DNA of 63,211 bases, filler included, from Cercozoa sp. M6MM (taxonomy: Eukaryota > Protista > Endomyxa: Ascetosporea): NCBI GenBank assembly GCA_040357565.1. It is 10 parts of 10 records of this genome, joined end to end, with 100 filler letters (N's around TTAATTAATTAA, not from the genome) between each part and the next. Parts side by side here need not be neighbours in the genome. Positions count along the whole stretch, not along the records: positions 13,782 to 30,797 come from JBDODJ010000273.1; 9 more parts are not named here. One strand, given 5' to 3'. Below the pieces are notes generated by a model. That model was not told the DNA's origin and did no database searches. It was given only the letters and a program-made list of their open reading frames with translations. The position numbers were made by a program, and so were the translations under genes. Each line of letters begins with the position of its first letter. The first letter of the stretch is position 1. This document shows, piece by piece, positions 7,682-25,194 of the stretch.

Positions 7682-9707
7682 ATGCCACCTCGGCGAAAGA
7701 GAACTGTGGTGACCCGGGTACCGATCGGAAATGCCCGCTTCGTGATGGGGAAGAATCTGTCCTACATGCGCGACAGGTGAGCTTCACCGCTCGTTGATCC
7801 ATTGATTTACTGCCCCAGTGATGTTGTATCGTCTGTAGTTCCGACCTGCTGAAGCAAGGCCGATTCCGCGACTTGCGGCAGCGACTGAGGTGATTGCTCC
7901 ACGAATGGTACCAAAATGACAAGAGTGATCAGTCTGTGTGTGCAGCAACGAAGGTTTCCTGTTTCTGCGCGGTCTGGTGCCGCGCGAAGTTGCATTGAAG
8001 GCGCGGCTGCCGGTGCTGAAGTTGGCGCATGAGAAGGGCGCGCTTGCACTTCCAAAGGGCCAGTCGAAAGCGACGCCGGAAGCACTGTCCGAGATGCTCA
8101 TCTCGTCCAGGAAGGTCGGTCGCCGCACAGTGCTCGCAGATGGCTACACGGTACAACATTGCCTTGTTTCACTAACCTTGAGACTCTCTTAGTTATATTT
8201 TTGCTGACATATAACATTGCAACAGGTGGATGCTCGCACAGGCGGCATTGGCGGTGAGCGTGACCCGGACTTTGAGTCCTGGGCCAAGGTGGGAAACACT
8301 GCCGACGTCGTGGCAATCTACGACGGCGACGTCATCCACACACTGCTGGACAACCTGTTCGGAAGCAACAAGGATGGCCAGCAGGAGCAGGACCAGGCCT
8401 GCTGGGAGACCTTCCCAGAGCACACGTGGCTGCGACTCAAGGAGAACGGCGGCGCCACCATCGAGCACGCTGACTACTACTACTTCAAGCGCGACACGGC
8501 CGTGTTCGAGGAGGGCGGCACCACGCTGCGCGACTCGGGCGACTCCGTGGGACATCAGGCTGGTCGTCCGGCAGTCCGTCGGCTCGTCAACGTGCAGCGC
8601 AAGAAGAGCGACGTGTCGTCGCACTGCATCAAGTGTGCCGACACCCAACCGACTGAGCTGCTGCACTGCGGTCTGTGTGGCCTGCGTGTGCATGACACGT
8701 GCTTGCCCGAGGAGCTGCAGCAGGCGCGGCAGGGCGGCGGCTTTGGTCAAGAAGGTGCCTGGCACTGCACGCGCTGTGCTAACGGTCCGCTCGGTGTGTT
8801 CACCATGTGGACCTGTCTCACCGACCTCGAGTCACACAAGCGCAGCATGCTGGCGGTACCCCTGTGTTTCTCTTTTTACATACAAATCTATATATATATG
8901 TGTGTGTGTGCATGTACATATAGGTGTGTCCGCGGTCGCACACGCTGCAAGGCGTAGACCAGGTGCCGCCTGGCACGCAGGTGCAGCGCAGCTACTGGCA
9001 GCGACGCAAGGAACTGCCTTGGGTAATCCCGGAGACCCTGTCACCCGGCGATGTCATCGTGTTCAACATCAAGACGGTGCATGCCGCCTCCTTTAACACC
9101 AGCAAGCAGTTCCGCTGCTCTTTCGACACGCGTTTCCAGTTGCTCCGGCCCGTGGTACCTTTGCTTTGTTGTGTACTTTGCCTGCTGTGTGTGCACACTT
9201 GGTACTCGTGGTATTGTAGCCACTAGACCAGGTCAGCAACGGTGGCCATGACATGACCGAAGAGCCGAGCGAGCCGCTTGAACATTTTGATGAGTCGGCT
9301 GCTTTGGTATCTTGGTGCTTTTGTGGGGCTATCTACTCATGCATCGTACTGATGAGACATCTGAGTGTGTGCAGGCCAAGATGCGGCAACCGGCGACACC
9401 TGATGTGGCCGAGGCGGGTGCTTTGCTAACTCCCAGCAAGATCGAGCCGACAGCGATCGACAACGAGAACAGCAACCCAGCGTTGAACCTGTCACGTTCC
9501 ACGCTCACTCCACACGAGACACCGTTTCAGAAACTCAAGATCGTCGGTCGCAGCAAGCAGGGCCAGCCCATGGCGAAACAGAAGCGCCGGCGTCGACTCA
9601 GTTTCTCCGACTGCGCCATTGATGATGAGCCGAGCGACGCCAGCACGGCCGCCACGGCTTCGTCTGCCGCTGCTGCCCCTGTCCCGGCTGCACTCCGTGA
9701 GGATTGA
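7682..9707 (+). CDS. PhyH-like 2OG-Fe(II) dioxygenase with an inserted PHD finger
   Basis: LSNEGFLFLRGLVP, HAD at 8466-8474, C4HC3 finger at 8625-8777, FTMWTCL, VCPRSH, PGDVIVFNIKTVHAAS.N (His at 9080), RCSFDTRF. Basic NLS-like PRRKR and KQKRRRR. Confidence 0.85.
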
Positions 9708-11837: not shown

Positions 11838-12495
11838 CGCAGCTTCCCTTCTTCCCTTCTTGTTTTTCTTACGTTTGATGAACCCCTCCAGGGAAAACGA
11901 ACAGACCACGTCAACAAATCGAGTGCATCACGCACGTCAACACTCGCGAAAAACAGGGTTTCATCAATTCAACATTGTTTAAAGGTGCGCCCGGAGCGCC
12001 CGAATCGTACAGTGATAATAAAAGCCCGGGACCCGTCCACGCGTGCCCCGTCCAGTCCAGCGAAGCGCTGTAGTGAGTAGTACCGGACGTTTGTACGCCG
12101 TGAGACAGGTACTCAGAGGACCAGAATAGAGACACTGGGCGGGGGACTGAGCGTGTTTTTCTGTCCCCGTTGGGGTTTTGTGCTTTGGAGCCATAGTTCT
12201 CGCCGCTTGGCCTCTCTGACGCCGATTGCTGTGTCTGTGTGGTGCGTAAAGTGTTTGAGACAGAGTTTATGCCCGTAAAGCGGCGTTGATTTGTTGTTTT
12301 GGACACTTGGCTTTTTGGCGACTTGGGCAATCCCGGGTTTTGACTTTTGTCTGTTTTGGGCCGTCGTGTCCATTTTTTTGAGTTATCGCCAGCTCTCTTT
12401 TCCTTTTGCAGTTAGCACTTCAGAGCTCTCTGTCCGCAGCAGCTATATGATGATGATGTGCTCGGTTTTGGAGCAGTTGCCGACTGGTCCCCGCG

Positions 12496-12759
12496 ATGGA
12501 AGGACAGAACGATGCGCCCATTGCAGGGCAAATCTCGCACGCGCAGATGGTAGCGCCCGGCAGCATGGATGACTCGATCAACGCGCATCACGCACACGTG
12601 CAGCACGCTCACGATCAGCACGCACACGCACACCAGCACCACCCGGGCATGGACGACATGACGACGGCCAGTCTGGGCACTGGCGGTCTAGGGAGCGGTA
12701 GTCTGCCAACCGCCATGAGTGCTGCGAGCATCCAGGCCGCCATGCAAGCTGCCGGCTCT

Positions 12760-12795
<36 letters not shown>

Positions 12796-13666
12796 CAACC
12801 TCAGCACCAGCAGCTGGCCACGATGCATGCCTCCATTGCAGGTGTGCCTCCGTCGGGATGGGTCAAATACTACTCGAACCCTGCCTTCTATACTCAGGTA
12901 CTTGCGCTCTAGTAAGCACTTTCGTTGACTTGACTTGACTTGCTTGACTTTGCAGCAGCAGCCTCAACAGCAGCAGCCGCAACAACAGCAGCCACAACAG
13001 CAGCAGCAGCAGCAACCCGTCGTGAACCACGGACTGCTGTCGCAGCAGGCGCAGCAGCCGGTGCCGCAGCAGCCCGAGCTGCTCACGGGCGACCCAGCTA
13101 CCGGTGCCAGCGAGGCCGCCACTGAGGGTACTACCGACCTTTCACCCTATCCCCCCTACCCTATCAAACCCCCACGCCGCAGAGATGAAGCACAAGAAAC
13201 ATCTGTACGAGACGGTGCCAGTGTCGAGCAAGGACTTTTATGTGGCCTACTACTCGTCGACGGAGGCGGCGCCGCTGATGACGCGTGCATTTGCGCACAC
13301 GGCCATGTCGTGGCCGAACTTCCTGCAGCGCGTGCAGGAGAACTTTGCCGCGCAGCCTGACAAGCTGCCCAGTGTCTCCTTGTACTACCGTCTGCTGCCG
13401 GTACCTCTTACCCTCTTACCACCCTCCGACTCCGTATACTCCCTGTTTACCCCCCCCCCAGAGCCCGACGTCGACCGTGCAAATCACGGGCAAGCTGTCG
13501 TTCGACGGCTTCGTGCGCAGTGCCAATGCCGACGTTCTCGTCGTACTCAACATGTAACCTTTACCCCCTTGGCCCTTGATTCCTCCCTCCCTTTAACCCC
13601 CCCCCCTGGACAGGGCGATGAACAACACGATGGTACCGATGCAGAGTCTGTTTGAGACTGCCGAGG
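12496..13666 (+). CDS. His/Gln-rich low-complexity protein with a possible PB1-like domain, 3'-partial
   Basis: MEGQNDAP... polyQ tracts, then spliced exons SWPNFLQRVQENF...SLYYRLLP|SPTSTVQITGK. Truncated by a contig linker. Confidence 0.6.
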
Positions 13667-13681
13667 TAGCACATGTCCTGG

Positions 13682-13781
13682 NNNNNNNNNNNNNNNNNNN
13701 NNNNNNNNNNNNNNNNNNNNNNNNNTTAATTAATTAANNNNNNNNNNNNNNNNNNNNNNNNNNNNNNNNNNNNNNNNNNNN
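13682..13781. other. Artificial contig linker N-TTAATTAATTAA-N; also at about 30798, 35271, 39068, 46965, 51480, 58545, 60470 and 61973
   Basis: Identical 100-bp six-frame-stop spacer at each site. Confidence 0.97.
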
Positions 13782-13822
<41 letters not shown>

Positions 13823-13904
13823 CTATAGCTGTATGGCTGAGTGTGCCATAGCTGTATGGCTGAGTGTGCGTGTGTAGCTTGGTCTGTTCGGCGGCCCCGT
13901 GCAG

Positions 13905-16562
<2,658 letters not shown>

Positions 16563-16886
16563 AAAATATAGCGTGTTTGTGTTGAGTGCGGCCGTGTGAT
16601 TTAACTGACGAACGGTGTGCGGCGCACGCCAACTGTGTTTATTTGATTTTGGTTGACTGCTTCCGTTTACACCCGTCACGTCCTACCGGTACGATACGAT
16701 CAGTGGTGCCCGTAACCGGCCGGGCACTAGTCGCCCGTCGCCGGTACGAGATCAGGCGATCAGCTGGAAACGGTCTGAGTGACCGCCCAGGGAAAAAACA
16801 TCGTTTCCAACAAGGGCGACGGACCGTAGAGTACAAGCCTCCAAAGGTGTCAGGGCGTGTGCAAAAGTGCTCGGGGCTGCGCTGTC

Positions 16887-17591
16887 ATGGGCAATCGCCA
16901 AAGTCGACGCAACCTGGCAGAGGTCTCCTGATTTTCAACCACTGGGCTCCCCACGTGCGTGCATGTTTTTTCCGTGCATGTGTGCAGGAATGGCTGCTCC
17001 AGACTGCGGTTATGCTCGCCCAGGAGTACTATGGCACAGCCGACAGCCCAACCGTTAGTCCGGCTAATAGTCGCGGCGGCACGCCGAGGAGCTCGTTCGC
17101 CGACGAGGATGACTCCAAGCATGACTGCGACCACGAGGAGGAAGACACGGCGACTGTTTACAGCATGGATAGTCTTGCCAGTACCACATGCAGTAGTACA
17201 CATTCGCTCAACGATCGTGATGGCAGCAGCAGTCTAGTCAACCTGCGCAGGCTGGTATGTGACTCTTTTGTCAATAGCAAATGTAACTGGGAACCCTATC
17301 CGTAGCGACGACTTAATGTCTGCACAAAAGCAGCTCGAAGCTTCGCAAAAAAATACGGCAACCTGGTATTAAGGACGTATGTTTCCGTTCTGTGCCTACG
17401 AGATTTGTGTGTTATACAGGATTTGCGAGGTGCCGTGGTCATGCTGCGAAATCGCATCCAAGATCCAGGTATATTTGCACGTAACAAGTGTACCATCAAA
17501 CTTGCTTACGTTTGTGTGTACTGTAGTTGTTGGTGCTGCGGCAATATATCTCATTTTCGTCGGAGCCAGAGAGTAAGTTAATCGATATCTT

Positions 17592-17624
<33 letters not shown>

Positions 17625-19009
17625 AACTTATATGTATATATATATGTATATAATCTGGACGTTCTGTAGGAGCGGAATACACTTGCAAAAAATTGCATCC
17701 AGCGCAGTCAGAGACCTTGGTACACTTGACTGTGAATAAATCAACAAAGGATAAATTTCGATCTTTTTGTGTCGCAGTTCCGTTGTCAAAGTTCGGCACG
17801 AATGTACCCATCTTGTGTTAATTATGGGAGTCTTAACACTGTAATGTAAAGTACCCTTTGAGACAGATTGAAGTGCCACGTTCTTTGCTGCGTGCCGTGC
17901 TGTACTTTGCGGGTGGTGCCGCAACTGCAGATGTTCTGTTGGCTGGAGTCAGGCAGGTCAGTTGATACAAATATTGGGAAGGAACCTATGCCATACAAAA
18001 CATTTGCCATTTAAATTTGCAGGGAACAAGTGTTATGAACCTTGCCGTGGAACGTAACTGCGTCAAGACGCTTGATGTACCACCACCATTTTAAACCTTG
18101 TCTGATCTTGTATGGCGAGGCTACAATCATTTTTGTTCAGGTACTATTGGAGTATGATGTGCGACGCCGACGAAAAGCGCGGCAGTTTTCCAGCTCTCGC
18201 TACCGACGGTGCTCAGTCTCTTTGTATTTCCCACTGAGCTCTTTTCGTTTCTCATTTTCCAATGTGCACAGGACAAGAAGGCAGCGTGAAAGGAGGTGGC
18301 TCAGTGCGGTATTTGCAGGGTCGAATTATCTGTGTGTTTTCTTGAAACTGAACCTTGTGTTTCTTCAGTTTGGACAAGCGGCGCAGTTGCAGCGTTTCGA
18401 GTGCATGGAACGGATATTGAATGTATCTTTGACTGCGAGATATATGTGTGCTTGCCCGAGTCATGTGTCCAGTGCGCCAAGCGATGCAGCGAACGCAGGG
18501 AACTCTTGCGAACTGCGATAGGTAAGAAGCACTATCACTGTATGTCCAAGTACTTAACTTCGAGGGTACTGAACAATTGTAGACACTGTGTGTTGGGCGC
18601 AAAATCACACAGGTGCAACTCTTAGAATAGGGACGTATGCATACCTATTGAATTCTTGTCTCGCAGAAGATACCCCCTCGGGTCGGCAGTCACTAGAACA
18701 CACCGTGAAGACAATGTTCACCTTTCTGGAGCAACACTTTGGCTCCCCTCGTAAACTTCTCTCGTTTGAACTCCTCTTATCTTACTTACTCTTGGCACGC
18801 TCTCATGTCTTGGCAGTGTTTTCGACGCACGATGAGTCGTTGCGAGTGTCGTGCGTTGCTCAATCGTTGGTACTCAATGGACTCCCATGCCTCCCGTGCC
18901 ACGTTTCTGTGTGTATCAAATTTGTTGCTATGCAGACTGCTCTAGAAGTGGTCGCTCAGTACCGACACACGGTATAACGTTTTCTCCGTTCTCTCCCTTT
19001 TTATACATA

Positions 19010-19040
<31 letters not shown>

Positions 19041-21240
19041 GCGTGTGTGTGTGTGTGTGTGTGTGTTTCTGTGCTTTGACGTTTGCAATTGTGGCAGGAG
19101 ACAGCCTGGCGCTACTCGGAGTTGGAAGATTTCGAGTTTTTTGTTGTCACCGCGCGCACAGCATTACATGCGGTACCGCCTGAGTGTGTTCTAAAATGTG
19201 TGCATACACTAAAACCCGCGTGCATGCACAGTTGCGAGCAAGTCCGTGGCAAGTGGCGGGCACTTTGGCCCGAGTTTCCACGTTTTTGCGCCTGCCTTTC
19301 GCCAACTCAGTACAGCATGGTCGCATGAGGGAGGCGCCGACCCGAGACGTGGCTTCACAAACGGAACAGGTGCAGGAGTGCACGCTGCAATACTGGTGTC
19401 TACTCCAAGGCAGCTTACTCGGTAACCATCACACTGGGGGGAAGAGAAGGGATAGCATTACCAGATTACTCTGTGCCTGCAGGAGACGGCGATCCACTGA
19501 TGCTGTTGCTGCCTTTGTTTCTGGATGCTGCATGCACGCCGGGTACCTTGTAGTGTATATGTATATTTGTTATGTATTTATTGTTTTGGATCTATTGTTT
19601 ATGTATTTATTGTTTTGGATCTATTGTTTATGTACTTATGATTTAGGTGCTATGTTTTTCCGTTATTTCTTTCTTCATTCATTTATCTCACAATTTATCT
19701 GTTCATTCATTTCTCCATTCGTTTACTTTGTTTACTCTTTGTATTTTGTTCTCATATTTAAGCGTTTTTTTAATTTAAACTGCAGGTTCGACTGCGCGTC
19801 TCGTGGCTGCGCTTCTGTCCAATGGTGCACGAATCACGGTAGCGAAAATGCACCTCCCTCTGCATATATTGGGACATCCGTCGATACACAAGTTTTGTAG
19901 AAGCAAACACTGGGCGACGGCTTGCGAATCGCTCGCGAGATGCGTACGAGTGTGCACTTCCTGGGCGCGTGTGCCAAAGTGCCGGCGCATGAGGATGACG
20001 ACACCATGGACTCCACTCTGGTGCAGGCCATCCTGGCCTCTGCGCGGGCACTGGTACTGTTAACTCTTCTAATATAAATATATCTTTTTATTTATATACT
20101 AAAAATAAATCAATCAGTATTAATTTATAATTCAACATAAATTAATTTAAAATAAAAGAAATATATTAAACATAGTCTCGTGCGGCCGGGCGTGAGCGAC
20201 ATGCGAGACTCGCCAGCGAGATCGGCGAGGCCGTGCCGTGCCTGGACCCGCTGTGCTTGGCCACTGTGGCCGATTTCATGTGCTACATGCCTGCCGTGTC
20301 GCACTCCACTGTGCCCAGGTATTTCCTAGCTTCACTCGAGTTAGTATATTCCTTTGCTCGTTATCTTCGTGTGTGTGTTTGTATGTCTGCAGACAGTACG
20401 AACCTATCACATCGATTCCAAACTACCCGGATGTGCCGGTCCTTGACTACTTCTTCACAGGTATAGTCTATACGCTCGTAAACGCCTACGTGCATGTATT
20501 TGGTTTGTATGTATACAGCCCTATCGAGCGATACTGAGCGACGCATCGTAGTTGAGGAACCCACCAAGAAACGAAGGTCAAGGTAGCTGGCCTTCTGTAT
20601 GTACATGTGTGTATTGATATGTCTGTATGTCTGTATATTTGTGTGTGTGTGCGTGTGGACAGAGACATTCGCACAGTGATGTTGCTGGGTGCCGGTGGCA
20701 GTGGCAAAAGCTGCCTAACGAAACATCTGTCCATGCGCTTCACTGGATGTAAAGCACTTTGTACATTATAGATATTATATGTCTATACATATATATAATG
20801 TACACCTGTGTTTATATATATAATGTATGTTTATCCCTGCTGTCCTTGTACACCGGAGTCGTTGGGCAGCGTCGCCGCAGAAACCCAAGGAAAATGCCTT
20901 CTGTGGCATGCGCGACATTGTGCGCACTGCTGCCACTAAACTGGGTGAGTCTTTTTCTGTATGTAGACATGCATGTATGTACGTATGTATGTGCGTGTAT
21001 ACATAGTGCAAAAATCCATCGATTTCGACAATGTGGGCCTGGAGAATCCGCGTAGCTACCGTGCCGCTTTGACCTTGGTATACACTCTGTATCTGTGTAT
21101 ATATGTGTACTTGTATTACCAATCATGTATTCCTGTAGACGAGTCGTACTGAGGCGATGCAACTGGCCGGTGGCTATGCCAACGTTGATGACCTGCACAA
21201 TCGATTGGGTATCATTTGTCAATATACATATACATATATC

Positions 21241-21337
<97 letters not shown>

Positions 21338-22509
21338 GAGGCAACGACTCCTGCCCCGTTGGAGGAGGACGAGGGTGGGCTCGCTCGACGTGATGCACAG
21401 GATATTCTGGTACACAGCAGGCACGCAGATGCACATACAGTTATGCAGGCTTGCACTCTGACATATGTGTCTCTATAGGCACTGTGGGAGGAACCGAGCA
21501 TTCAGCGCACTTGGCAGCGACTGCGTACCGAAGCTGAGGTACCCTGCATCTGTAGGTATGTGTGTGCATGCGAAGTGCTGAATGTCCCTGTTGTGTAGGA
21601 CCACATTCCGTACGTGCTGCCGCGTGCACTGCAGTTCGTGACAGACCAGCGCAGAATCACGCCACTGCAGTGGTCCATGGTATGACACACGTGTCTCTAT
21701 CCCGACCGACCGAAGTGAGGCTGCCGAAACATACCTACTGCTCGCACATAGGCACACTTTCGCACAACAGGAGTGCTGCCGACGGACTTCAACATCACTC
21801 AGGTTCGGCATCGAAACAAGCAGCAGCATGTGTACATGCAGGGGTGAGTTTGACCTATATCTTTGAACCTTTATGTTGTCGGATGTCTACGTGTATACAT
21901 GTATAAACAGATTAAATTCTGTATGTGTGTCTCATCTATCTATCTGTCCATCTATCTAGCTATCTAAAGACATAAACATGTATATTTATTCAACATGTAT
22001 TGTGTAATAGTGTGCGAGTCATGGACCCAGGTGGCCAGCGATGCGAACGACGAAAGTGGACCCTCGGTACTCTCGCAGGACTCGAGTTGGAATCACTAAC
22101 TTACCAAAGTGTGTTCATATACGCAAAAACGCAGCGGCCAGTCAGGCGGACGCTTTTGTCGTGTGTGTCTCCGCAAGCGACTTCCGACAGATCATGTTCG
22201 AAGACTCTGGCAATCGACTTGTTGAGGTAGAAGGGCAATCTGAGGTAGTGAAGAGGCTGCTCAGAGGTGTTCGTGTGTGCATTCAGAGCGTCGCAGTGCT
22301 GCGCTCGGTGATGAACGACATTGCGTTCGCCGACCGGCCCTTCTTCCTGACGGTGACCAAGTGCGACCTGCTGCAGCAACTTGTGCAGTTTGAGGTAACA
22401 AGTCCCTGTGTCTCTGTCTCACTTGTTGCATGTGTGTTGAGTATGTTTGAAGAACGTTCCTTTCTCGTATCACGGCGAACTCACGGATCCGTCGCTCACT
22501 GAGGTACAC

Positions 22510-22559
<50 letters not shown>

Positions 22560-22775
22560 TGCTAAATAAAATGCAGCTGATGGGCCTGTCGCCTCTGCCT
22601 GCCGATGGAAACAGTACCAACAGCACCAGCAACAGCGAGCGCAGCGGCGACAGGAACGACGTGCGTGCAGTGTTGTTGGCACTGCTGCAGTTGCTGCTGC
22701 ACGAATTGCCAACGGAACGACTCCGAGGTTCGTCTCCTTTTTTCTGCCGGTGGAACGACTCCGACTGACGTGTGC

Positions 22776-22829
<54 letters not shown>

Positions 22830-22963
22830 GTGTTTTCCTTGTGTCCTGTACGGATGGAGCAGCGCTCGAGGACATGCTCGCCGAGGTGTTGCTGCGCTCG
22901 TTCGGCAGCCGCTCCGAATCCACGGCGGTTCATTATTACTACTCCGATTGGCGCCATCGCTAA
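16887..22963 (+). CDS. Extra-large G-protein alpha-like protein: MGNRQS N-terminus, about 600-aa helical/ankyrin-like extension, C-terminal G-alpha domain
   Basis: A continuous in-frame GT-AG exon chain runs from ATG 16887. G1 GAGGSGKS, G2 HFRTTGV, G3 DPGGQRCERRKW, then EDSGNRLVES, G4 TKCD, G5 VSCTD. Confidence 0.85.
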
Positions 22964-23733: not shown

Positions 23734-25194
23734 TTACGACAGCAGCTGCTGGGCAGCCTGCTTGTCACTCTGAGCGGACAAAAAGAGTCGATTTCAATGC
23801 CAATTTTTGCGGTCCGTGGGAAAAGTTGTGTGTTACCGAGAACGAGAAGCAAGCCGGGATCTGGAAGTTGTTCTGCTTGTCGAGGATACGCGGGGCGAGC
23901 AGCTGGAGTGCCGCCATCTTGTCGCTGCTCATGCTGAACTGGCCAATCACCTGCTGCACCTGCGCCACGTAGAAGCCGTAGTTGCCGATTCCCATGCGCA
24001 ACACGTTCATCTTGTTGCTGCTAAAGGACTCGTTGGCGATCTGCTGCAGCAGCGAGGCAAACCTGTGGGTGCGCGCGGGGGTAGGGGTAAAGAAAACATA
24101 GAAGGACCAGAATACGTGTTCTGCGGGATCGGGGAGTAGGTAGCGCTCATCTGCTGCATCGGTTGCATCGGCTGCATCTGGTGCTGCGGCATGGGCTGGC
24201 TCGGCATGGGCTGGCTCGGCATGTGCATGCCAGGCATGGGCTGACCCGGCATCGGTTGCATGCCGGTCGGCTGCATTGGCTGCATTGACTGCATTGGCGG
24301 CTGCATGTGCATGCCAGGCATGGGCTGACCCATGGCAGGCTGCATCGGCATGGCAGGTTGCATCGGCATGGCGGGCTGCATGGAAGGCATGGGCTGCTGC
24401 ATGGAGGGCATGGGCTGCTGCATGGAGGGCATGGGCTGCTGCATGGAAGGCATGGGCTGCTGCATGGAGGGCATGCCGCCGCCCACGATCTGGTAGGAGA
24501 AGTGCTCCCAGCCCTGCGCCTGCTGACGGTTGCATTCGAGGCGGCCGTCCTGTTGCGCGGACAGGAAGGTGTGGTGAGCCGCCGACTGCACGGCAACCTT
24601 TCCCGGACCGACCTGCGCGATGTTGAAATAGGGGATGGTGTTTCTGCTGAGTGTGTCAAATGTACGATGTGGATGCGGAAGTGCTCCCAGCCCTGGGCAC
24701 GGTCACGGTTAACGACAAAGGTGCCGTTCTGCTCGCAGCAAGCGTACTTGCCTGCAGGAAAATAAGTAGGTGGGTAGGTGGGTAGGTGGGTAGGTAGGTA
24801 GGGAGATGGGTAGGTAGGTAGGGAGGGAGGTAGGAAGATGGGCAGGAGGTAGGAAGATGGGCAGGAGGTAGGGAGATACAAAGATAAGACAAATAGGTAC
24901 AAATAGACCAGACAAAACAAACAGGCACAGACAAGACAGATAGGACAAAACAAATAGGTATGGAAGGCGAAGTACCATGGGCAGAACGGATGGTGACGAG
25001 ACCGTTTCCAACGGGCGACAACGTCACCTGCTCCCAGGCCTGCGAGCACACAATGCGATACAACACATAGCTGCCAATCTATGTCAGGAAAGTCGCATCG
25101 ACTCAATCAATACCTGAGCCATGTCGCGGTTGGCCACGGCCATGCCGCTTTGCTCAACGCACAAGTACTTGCCTGTGCATGTATACAAATCCGA

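Follow-up and report, generated by a model that had tools for sequence, protein, structure and literature searches.

G-alpha subunits enlarged by a long N-terminal region are known from plants and mammals. The plant-specific extra-large G proteins (XLGs) are described as having a Cys-rich N-terminal region (PMC13185490) and reduced GTPase activity, and XLG2 as being without the arginine finger (PMC13185490; 10.1101/795088). The mammalian XLalpha-s (GNAS) is reported to be receptor-activated and to owe its difference from Gs-alpha solely to an alternative first exon (PMC9294334). Receptor-independent activation together with P-loop changes that slow hydrolysis has been described for Naegleria fowleri G-alpha1 and also for Trichomonas and plant GPA1 (PMC9283941), and lineage-specific expansions of G-alphas have been published for Bigelowiella and Naegleria (PMC3971589). 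Here we describe a gene at positions 16887-22963 (+ strand) of a 63,211-nucleotide (nt) stretch of eukaryotic, intron-rich DNA, joined from 10 parts of the genome of Cercozoa sp. M6MM, a rhizarian amoeba since described as Lemnamoeba sinaloensis (PMC11069148, PMC13746701); the whole of this stretch is called the window below. Judged by its sequence, the encoded protein is a member of the G-alpha family that is neither canonical nor an XLG.

The most informative feature of this protein, absent from the original prediction made on the same DNA, is the loss of the arginine finger together with its P-loop Glu partner. What had been predicted was a giant G-alpha whose extension does not resemble that of the plant XLGs, and this was supported, since the extension contains 3% Cys and has no protein match, XLGs included. 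As references, we used G-alphas collected from metagenome contigs by their G3 motif. The search gave 118 loci, 26 of them with a complete uninterrupted frame, and 23 were kept after one near-duplicate and two proteins of 870-880 residues had been dropped.

Gene model and reading frame

An 86-codon stretch of the G-alpha part, used as a probe against longer proteins, was 100% identical to one of 88 candidates, the deposited P0001 (1051 residues, "hypothetical protein MHM6MM_004882", Cercozoa sp. M6MM). This protein maps exactly, every letter, onto 16887-22963 (+) as 38 exons separated by 37 GT-AG introns of 50-243 nt (median 64 nt), from the ATG at 16887 (MGNRQS) to a stop codon that ends at 22963. 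The splicing of more than 30 exons in one frame from MGNRQS, which had been proposed from the sequence, therefore reproduces P0001 exactly, and the proposed coordinates and junctions (17254/17306 and 20582/20663) are those of the P0001 model. The pipeline behind P0001 is described as having been trained and updated with RNA reads (PMC11069148). The mean intron size of the species is given as 82 nt (Table 1 of PMC13746701), and the intron sizes of this gene fit that value, which counts for one frame.

While the frame was confirmed, a 39th exon boundary had been missed. A further in-frame GT-AG intron of 60 nt, at 22227-22286, is kept as coding in P0001. Once it is taken out, the protein scores 94.0 bits against the G-alpha profile instead of 73.7, and the 20-residue insertion that it would encode is present in none of the 23 references. 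Its retention in P0001 is an annotation error of 20 residues, and the protein thus has ~1031 residues encoded by 39 exons.

16887..22963 (+): whole gene; 39 exons and ~1031 residues as corrected (P0001: 38 exons, 1051 residues), from an exact spliced match plus the extra intron.
16887..16904 (+): MGNRQS, predicted N-myristoylation motif (Gly2, Ser6), from the sequence pattern.
20054..20175 (+): 122-nt intron of 13% G+C with two AATAAA, the one plausible split point (stop at 20077, next in-frame Met575 at 20278).
22227..22286 (+): in-frame 60-nt GT-AG intron retained in P0001, from splice scoring, reference alignment and profile score.

The reading frame is real, beyond what chance would give. 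To build splice matrices, we took only the 12 introns annotated within the G-alpha part. Scored with these matrices, the 25 upstream donors have a mean of 4.8, against -0.6 for the 263 other GT of the region (p 1.5e-12), and the 25 upstream acceptors a mean of 4.6, against -1.8 for the 161 other AG (p 6e-9). We also trained a small gene finder, forced to output one frame, on nothing but the exons and introns of the G-alpha part. Of the 25 upstream introns it placed 19 exactly, keeping to the G-alpha frame. Its score was 632; the three reverse-strand frames gave 395-404, and 12 locally shuffled versions gave 226-383. Because the gene finder was forced to a single frame, it supports a real frame and is compatible with two genes as well. 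Moreover, the frame of the model outscores the other two in 18 of the 25 upstream exons, and its summed score is -7 against -236 and -249.

The start of the frame was also considered. Residue 1 is the only Met-Gly among the 14 Met that precede the P-loop. A myristoylation-type start, by the general pattern for such starts, fits 21 of the 1416 open ATGs in the window, and Met-Gly begins 17 of the 23 references. A Met-Gly start is rare by chance yet usual in G-alphas, and this counts for one frame. There is no Cys before residue 59, and hence no palmitoylation site near the motif.

The G-alpha domain and its substitutions

The C-terminal part matches PF00503 in Pfam over residues 623-945 (103.1 bits against a gathering score of 48.8, E 2.2e-29). 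Its identity to the references is 19-25%, whereas the references are 33-85% identical among themselves. Two structure models were available: model 1, from the single sequence (mean predicted local distance difference test score, pLDDT, of 37; no Foldseek match at E 0.001), and model 2, built with a G-alpha alignment (mean pLDDT 52). The following features were assigned.

20439..20663 (+): alphaN helix, residues 604-632, ending PTKKRRSR; aligned to GPA1, transducin chimeras and the reference profile; helix 604-631 in model 2, pLDDT 37-55.
20688..20711 (+): G1 P-loop GAGGSGKS; Gly644 in place of Glu, with Lys647 and Ser648 retained.
20881..21667 (+): G-alpha helical domain, residues ~665-800; pLDDT 64-93, fold match to G-alphas.
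21752..21772 (+): G2/switch I AHFRTTG; arginine finger replaced by His806 (21755-21757), Thr809 kept.
22024..22059 (+): G3/switch II DPGGQRCERRKW; catalytic Gln844, Arg845, Arg848 and Trp851 retained; the segment after them is TLAA instead of IHCF.
22356..22367 (+): G4 TKCD; Asn (23/23 references) replaced by Thr928, Lys929 and Asp931 kept.
22598..22705 (+): Ser/Asn-rich insertion (965-981) and helix (982-1000), which is alpha4 in the preferred reading and alpha5 in a rival register.
22832..22963 (+): probable beta6, G5 box (SCTD), alpha5 (1017-1033) and 18-residue polar tail; model 1 has a strand at 1009-1012 and a helix at 1018-1033, model 2 just the helix.

Plant GPA1 and transducin chimeras align with residues 611-634 at their alphaN/beta1 junction. 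This alignment and the helix of model 2 indicate that PTKKRRSR ends a normal alphaN, so that the extension sits between the lipid anchor and alphaN. The basic "linker" that had been seen in these residues is, by the alignment, the reference profile and model 2, the end of the canonical alphaN helix. In the profile alignment, the helical domain is inserted between G1 and G2, as in the G-alpha family.

Residues kept in the motifs and switches comprise Lys647, Ser648, Thr809, Asp840, Gly842-Gly843, Gln844, Arg845, Arg848 and Trp851, and also Glu876, Arg881, Glu884, Lys929 and Asp931. The arginine finger, which is Arg in all 23 references, is His806 here, and the register is the same against the plant GPA1 structures. 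An Arg-to-His change at the finger site, as in Gs R201H, impairs the GTPase. At the P-loop Glu column the references have Glu (21), Gly (1) or Asp (1), and this protein has Gly644. R201H is listed among the disease variants of GNAS (PMC12423288), and the P-loop Glu and the arginine finger are reported to interact with each other and have been linked to nucleotide exchange (PMC9283941; 10.1101/795088). An ordinary-sized metagenomic G-alpha (L086:150-1214, +) has the same P-loop GAGGSGKS with Glu changed to Gly, and keeps the arginine finger. Further changes are Thr649 to Cys (Thr in 23/23 references), Val841 to Pro, giving DPGGQ as the G3 motif, and, after switch II, Cys-Phe (23/23 references each) to Ala854/855. 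In G-alphas, this Cys-Phe pair contacts G-beta.

The original prediction had described a complete G-alpha fold. Such a fold is shown by G1 to G4 and the helical domain, while beta6, G5 and alpha5 are probable assignments. When VFLVSCTD (1009-1016) is read as beta6 and G5, 35 residues then remain, against 26-29 in 21 of the 23 references, the other two being unmatched by the pattern used for this comparison. MAFFT, in contrast, sets the reference G5 box on the Ser/Asn-rich insertion, and the ungapped score favours 982-1000 as alpha5 (12.1, against below -10.8 for the SCTD register). We do not take the MAFFT register as the main reading, since no hydrophobic strand would then be left for beta6; the tail would also be much longer. 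It may nevertheless be the right one. A C-terminal extension of about 18 residues had been suggested; 18 residues do follow the predicted helix, but probably only 6-9 of them lie beyond the references. Whichever register applies, the protein ends in a sequence unlike the hydrophobic tail of the references, which makes plausible the earlier suggestion that the protein may not couple to G-protein-coupled receptors.

With model 2, the helical domain (model residues 665-807) matched Gs, Gi1 and an Entamoeba G-alpha over 110-111 residues (Z 10.3-12.2, root-mean-square deviation (rmsd) 2.2-2.9 Å), and Foldseek gave a G-alpha match at E 2.5e-7 with an rmsd of 15-24 Å. Among the 50 rows listed by the fold search with this model, the matches were to G-alphas only, those for the extension (Z up to 6.9) being common helical arrangements. 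Since model 2 was built on a G-alpha alignment, its G-alpha fold matches are partly circular.

The orphan extension and the surroundings of the gene

If the one-gene model holds, 640 residues precede the P-loop, compared with 37-68 in 23 of 23 references. The extension spans 24 exons, and its features are as follows.

17033..17236 (+): Ser/Thr/Asp-rich segment, residues 28-95, predicted disordered from composition; both models show coil there (pLDDT 27-47).
17237..20438 (+): orphan extension, residues 96-603, predicted all-helical with low confidence; no homologue, helices in both models (pLDDT mostly <60), no fold match.
18162..18305 (+): polybasic stretch, residues 234-260, 48% Arg, from composition.
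17954..18176 (+): one degenerate ankyrin-like unit, residues 208-238, the best window of an ankyrin matrix; it spans introns 17957-18022 and 18077-18140.
19518..19903 (+): a second ankyrin-like unit as originally predicted, residues 464-490, of which only 478-488 resembles a second ankyrin helix.

The Ser/acidic region that had been noted near the N-terminus is indeed present: residues 28-95 are 22% Ser and 15% Asp. The polybasic stretch could possibly act as a second membrane anchor or as a nuclear signal.

Searches for relatives found essentially the protein itself. Residues 98-632 gave only a self-match at E 0.001 among 1.84 billion representatives, and among 7,993 scored candidates of 578-1,840 residues the single homologue was P0001. 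Residues 745-895 gave none among 73 shorter candidates in a word-based search so insensitive that it missed even ordinary G-alphas. In a metagenome pattern search, none of 23 pattern matches was a relative, and viral contigs gave no match to the G-alpha motif. A Pfam scan of the whole protein found no domain in the extension, nine upstream exons of at least 20 residues scanned singly gave no Pfam match at E 10, and NCBIfam returned nothing relevant. Exon 20176-20318 contains LDPLCLATVADFM, which by eye may look like an F-box-like helix motif; this idea was left unsupported, with no Pfam match at E 10.

Ankyrin-like units had been predicted in the extension, and the tests described here were aimed only at that hypothesis, with profiles built from 37 reading frames in 38 loci of a viral collection. 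A home-made matrix from 139 repeats, whose training repeats score 43-69, gave +2.0 at its best window, residues 208-238, a value reached by none of 60 shuffles (mean -8.3, standard deviation 3.4) and compared with -2.8 for the reversed sequence. The second window scored -2.9, no better than the reversed control. Residues 208-238 were missed by Pfam and unreported by a home-made ankyrin hidden Markov model (HMM). With this HMM the extension scored 6.8 bits, a value that two of 500 global shuffles and one of 500 local ones also reached; the best piece was residues 478-488 (P 0.014). No internal repeat or self-match was found in the extension, and no tandem array of 33-residue ankyrin units. In the ESM Atlas, the neighbours of residues 98-625 are mostly ankyrin clusters (0.91-0.93) that share 98-135 of 256 features, where 170 of 256 is typical of family members. 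The ankyrin prediction was thus upheld for one degenerate unit (208-238) and not for an array: there is no Pfam match, and only the last 11 residues of the second unit resemble an ankyrin. We read the extension as an orphan region, probably helical, in which no more than one or two remnants of ankyrin-like units are left.

The upstream neighbour is a formin at ~12450-16563 (+), with FH2 domain matches at E 8.5e-14 and 8.9e-26, which ends ~320 nt before the ATG of the G-alpha gene; there is no evidence that this adjacency matters. In the spacer between them, a 9-nt direct repeat, CCGGTACGA, occurs at 16686-16694 and 16741-16749, 55 nt apart, and may be due to chance or be a promoter element. 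Downstream lies a convergent gene at 23768-24700 (-), in which a Pro/Met/Gln-rich repeat comes before a DUF4476 domain (E 6e-19). Elsewhere in the window, the frame at 8208-8954 (+) has a weak match to a PHD finger (E 2.8e-4, below the gathering score).

Proposed activity and comparison with known G-alphas

We propose that the gene encodes a single "extra-large" G-alpha of ~1,030 residues that would be membrane-bound, load guanosine triphosphate (GTP) readily, hydrolyse it slowly and act without a receptor, its extension serving as tethered partner or scaffold. Taken as a whole, this proposal has about an even chance of being right. Myristoylation at Gly2 would hold the protein at the membrane, and the 600-residue extension seems to be inserted between this lipid anchor and the alphaN helix. 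Binding of GTP and Mg, and switching, are likely to be retained, because the motif and switch II-III residues are kept at only 19-25% identity. Given GTP binding, it is quite likely that the protein would rest in the GTP-bound state, since the loss of the finger (His806) and of its salt-bridge partner (Gly644) would slow hydrolysis and loosen guanosine diphosphate. An RGS-type activator, acting via the retained Gln, could still switch the protein off. The presence of TLAA for IHCF on the switch II surface and the altered C-terminus suggest that coupling to G-beta-gamma and to receptors would be weak and that the extension would take over as binding partner, a step for which the prospects appear evenly balanced. 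The extension, which the original prediction had seen as a possible effector or scaffold carried by the protein itself, would likely serve as a tethered partner or scaffold. It is rather doubtful that the protein is, beyond this, an independent rhizarian extra-large G-alpha with a new or ankyrin-derived helical module, a natural Arg-to-His change of the oncogenic Gs type coupled to the loss of the P-loop partner, and a role as a self-loading slow timer that would have its own effector and neither receptor nor G-beta-gamma.

Several observations speak against the proposal. At the level of the gene model, 6 of the 25 upstream introns differ in the gene finder (at 18209-18816 and 19839-19903), residues ~250-335 are uncertain, and P0001, having kept a real intron, cannot reproduce a spliced read exactly. 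The references were picked on their G3 and G1 motifs, so that the invariance of those columns is by construction; His806, Gly644, Thr928 and Ala854/855 lie outside the positions fixed by the selection. The loss of Asn in TKCD, the change of Thr649 to Cys and a G5 box without significant alignment may mean poor nucleotide binding, not slow hydrolysis. A profile of the reference C-termini gave no significant match in the G5/alpha5 region, and the model is poor in its Ras-like half (pLDDT ~40-65; Foldseek rmsd 15-24 Å). Arg808, two residues past His806, might replace the finger, and Arg occupies this position also in 12 of the 23 references, where the finger is present. Finally, the median intergenic distance of the species is reported as 162-176 nt (PMC11069148, PMC13746701), and a gap of comparable size, 200 nt, could therefore conceal a gene boundary.

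Such a boundary would divide the locus into two adjacent genes merged by gene prediction, encoding a myristoylated orphan helical protein that ends at 20077 and a near-normal-sized, divergent G-alpha that starts at Met575. For each of the 25 upstream introns, we recorded the stop that would be met if the intron were retained and the next in-frame Met. The sole split giving a normal-sized G-alpha was the stop at 20077, in intron 20054-20175, with a start at Met575 (20278); it leaves 66 residues before the P-loop, inside the reference range of 37-68, whereas all the others leave at least 116, or only 3. The break points originally suggested (the TAG at 17305, or a start just before the G1 exon) are wrong, as they leave 512 or 3 residues. 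The intron at 20054-20175, of 13% G+C and with two AATAAA, would suit a boundary, and no homologue carrying both halves together was found. However, the split would turn 102 nt of exon 20176-20318 into non-coding DNA, although the model frame gives this exon +4.0 and the other two frames -22.8 and -22.1, and although it scores 16 bits against a spacer model. Intron 17573-17669 of the same gene is equally AT-rich (16% G+C), the true spacers flanking the gene, at 56% and 47% G+C, are unlike the 20054-20175 segment, and the myristoylation motif would have come by chance to lie on the wrong gene. Two genes are thus an unlikely arrangement and, on the gene models, the extension and the G-alpha parts likely form one protein. 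That this protein is the product of a decaying duplicate, a pseudogene in which the odd residues are meaningless, is barely credible. The failure of homologue searches to find relatives and the changes at several conserved residues could be read in that way, but ~1,030 codons in 39 exons run without stop or frameshift, the motif residues are kept at ~22% overall identity, and the codon signal is frame-specific.

The extension of a single protein could be a degenerate ankyrin array serving as a built-in effector or adaptor, which would be compatible with the proposal above. The Atlas neighbours, the unit at 208-238 that beats 60 of 60 shuffles and the HMM score that few shuffles equal point towards ankyrins. 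We nonetheless find an array improbable, given that the features shared in the Atlas fall below those typical of a family, Pfam has no ankyrin match, a stretch of 240 residues free of repeats separates the two ankyrin-like units, no self-match was found, and neither model has helix pairs of ankyrin length in the extension, at the low confidence of these predictions. The fold search with model 2 had no ankyrin chain among the 50 matches listed, which leaves room for that fold. Alternatively, the protein could be a nucleotide-poor decoy or fixed scaffold like Arabidopsis XLG2, its G-alpha domain kept for shape and its partners bound regardless of GTP. XLG2 is described as lacking the finger and binding GTP poorly, yet binding RGS and G-beta-gamma (10.1101/795088). 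The lost finger, TKCD in place of NKxD, the unalignable G5 box and an identity of 19-25%, against 33-85% among the references, would all fit a decoy. In the Atlas, an XLG-like cluster ranks third among the neighbours of the G-alpha domain, beside ordinary G-alphas, which is not a phylogenetic placement. However, XLG2 reportedly no longer has its G3 motif or the Gly and Lys of the P-loop (10.1101/795088), whereas GxGxSGKS, Thr809, DxGGQ and KxD are all kept here and would be needless in a pure decoy, so that we regard a decoy as rather unlikely.

A literature search found no description of such a protein or architecture in Rhizaria. A survey of G-protein architectures from 2011, which reportedly covers protist G-alpha fusions, may bear on this novelty. 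The term "G protein" does not occur in the two genome papers (PMC11069148, PMC13746701), and four supplementary files of PMC11069148 contain neither the gene number nor PF00503. If the single extra-large G-alpha that we propose is real, the extra-large design arose again outside plants, with an unrelated extension and with the arginine finger likewise lost but, unlike XLG2, with the residues for GTP and Mg binding kept. It would offer a natural test of the pair formed by the arginine finger and the P-loop Glu, in a cultured amoeba with a chromosome-level genome, within the limit of a single orphan gene.

With canonical G-alphas (PF00503; GPA1 8vgb/2xtz, Gi1 2gtp, Gs 9u3p), the protein shares the alphaN helix, the P-loop, the helical domain, the switch I Thr, DxGGQ with the catalytic Gln, ERRKW, KxD and a Met-Gly start. 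It differs from them by 640 instead of 37-68 residues before the P-loop, by His at the finger, by Gly for the P-loop Glu, by TKCD for NKxD, by TLAA for IHCF, by a different and longer C-terminus and by its identity of 19-25%. Two other metagenomic G-alphas, L100:90-2711 (+; 874 residues) and L114:35-2683 (+; 883 residues), have canonical N-termini and motifs followed by ~520 C-terminal residues beyond the G-alpha without a Pfam match at E 0.001; they are another kind of extra-large G-alpha, extended at the opposite end. Like XLG1-3, as these are described (PMC13185490), the protein is at least about twice the normal size, with a long N-terminal region and a C-terminal G-alpha whose GTPase is here predicted to be reduced as well, and, like the XLGs, it has a basic stretch that could be a nuclear signal. 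It resembles XLG2 in joining a long N-terminal region to a G-alpha domain without the arginine finger, and differs from it in keeping the P-loop Lys and the G3 motif; unlike the XLGs, it has only 3% Cys in an extension without sequence match to theirs, and begins with a myristoylation motif. With the mammalian XLalpha-s it has in common the enlargement of a G-alpha by a long N-terminal region, which here is spread over 24 exons and accompanied by an altered catalytic core. With the group of Naegleria fowleri G-alpha1, Trichomonas and GPA1 it shares a P-loop change, predicted here to slow hydrolysis, and, as predicted from its sequence, receptor-independent activation. The subunits assayed in that work are described as having N-terminal helices of ~25-35 residues, and one example, Nf G-alpha7, as having the arginine finger (PMC9283941).

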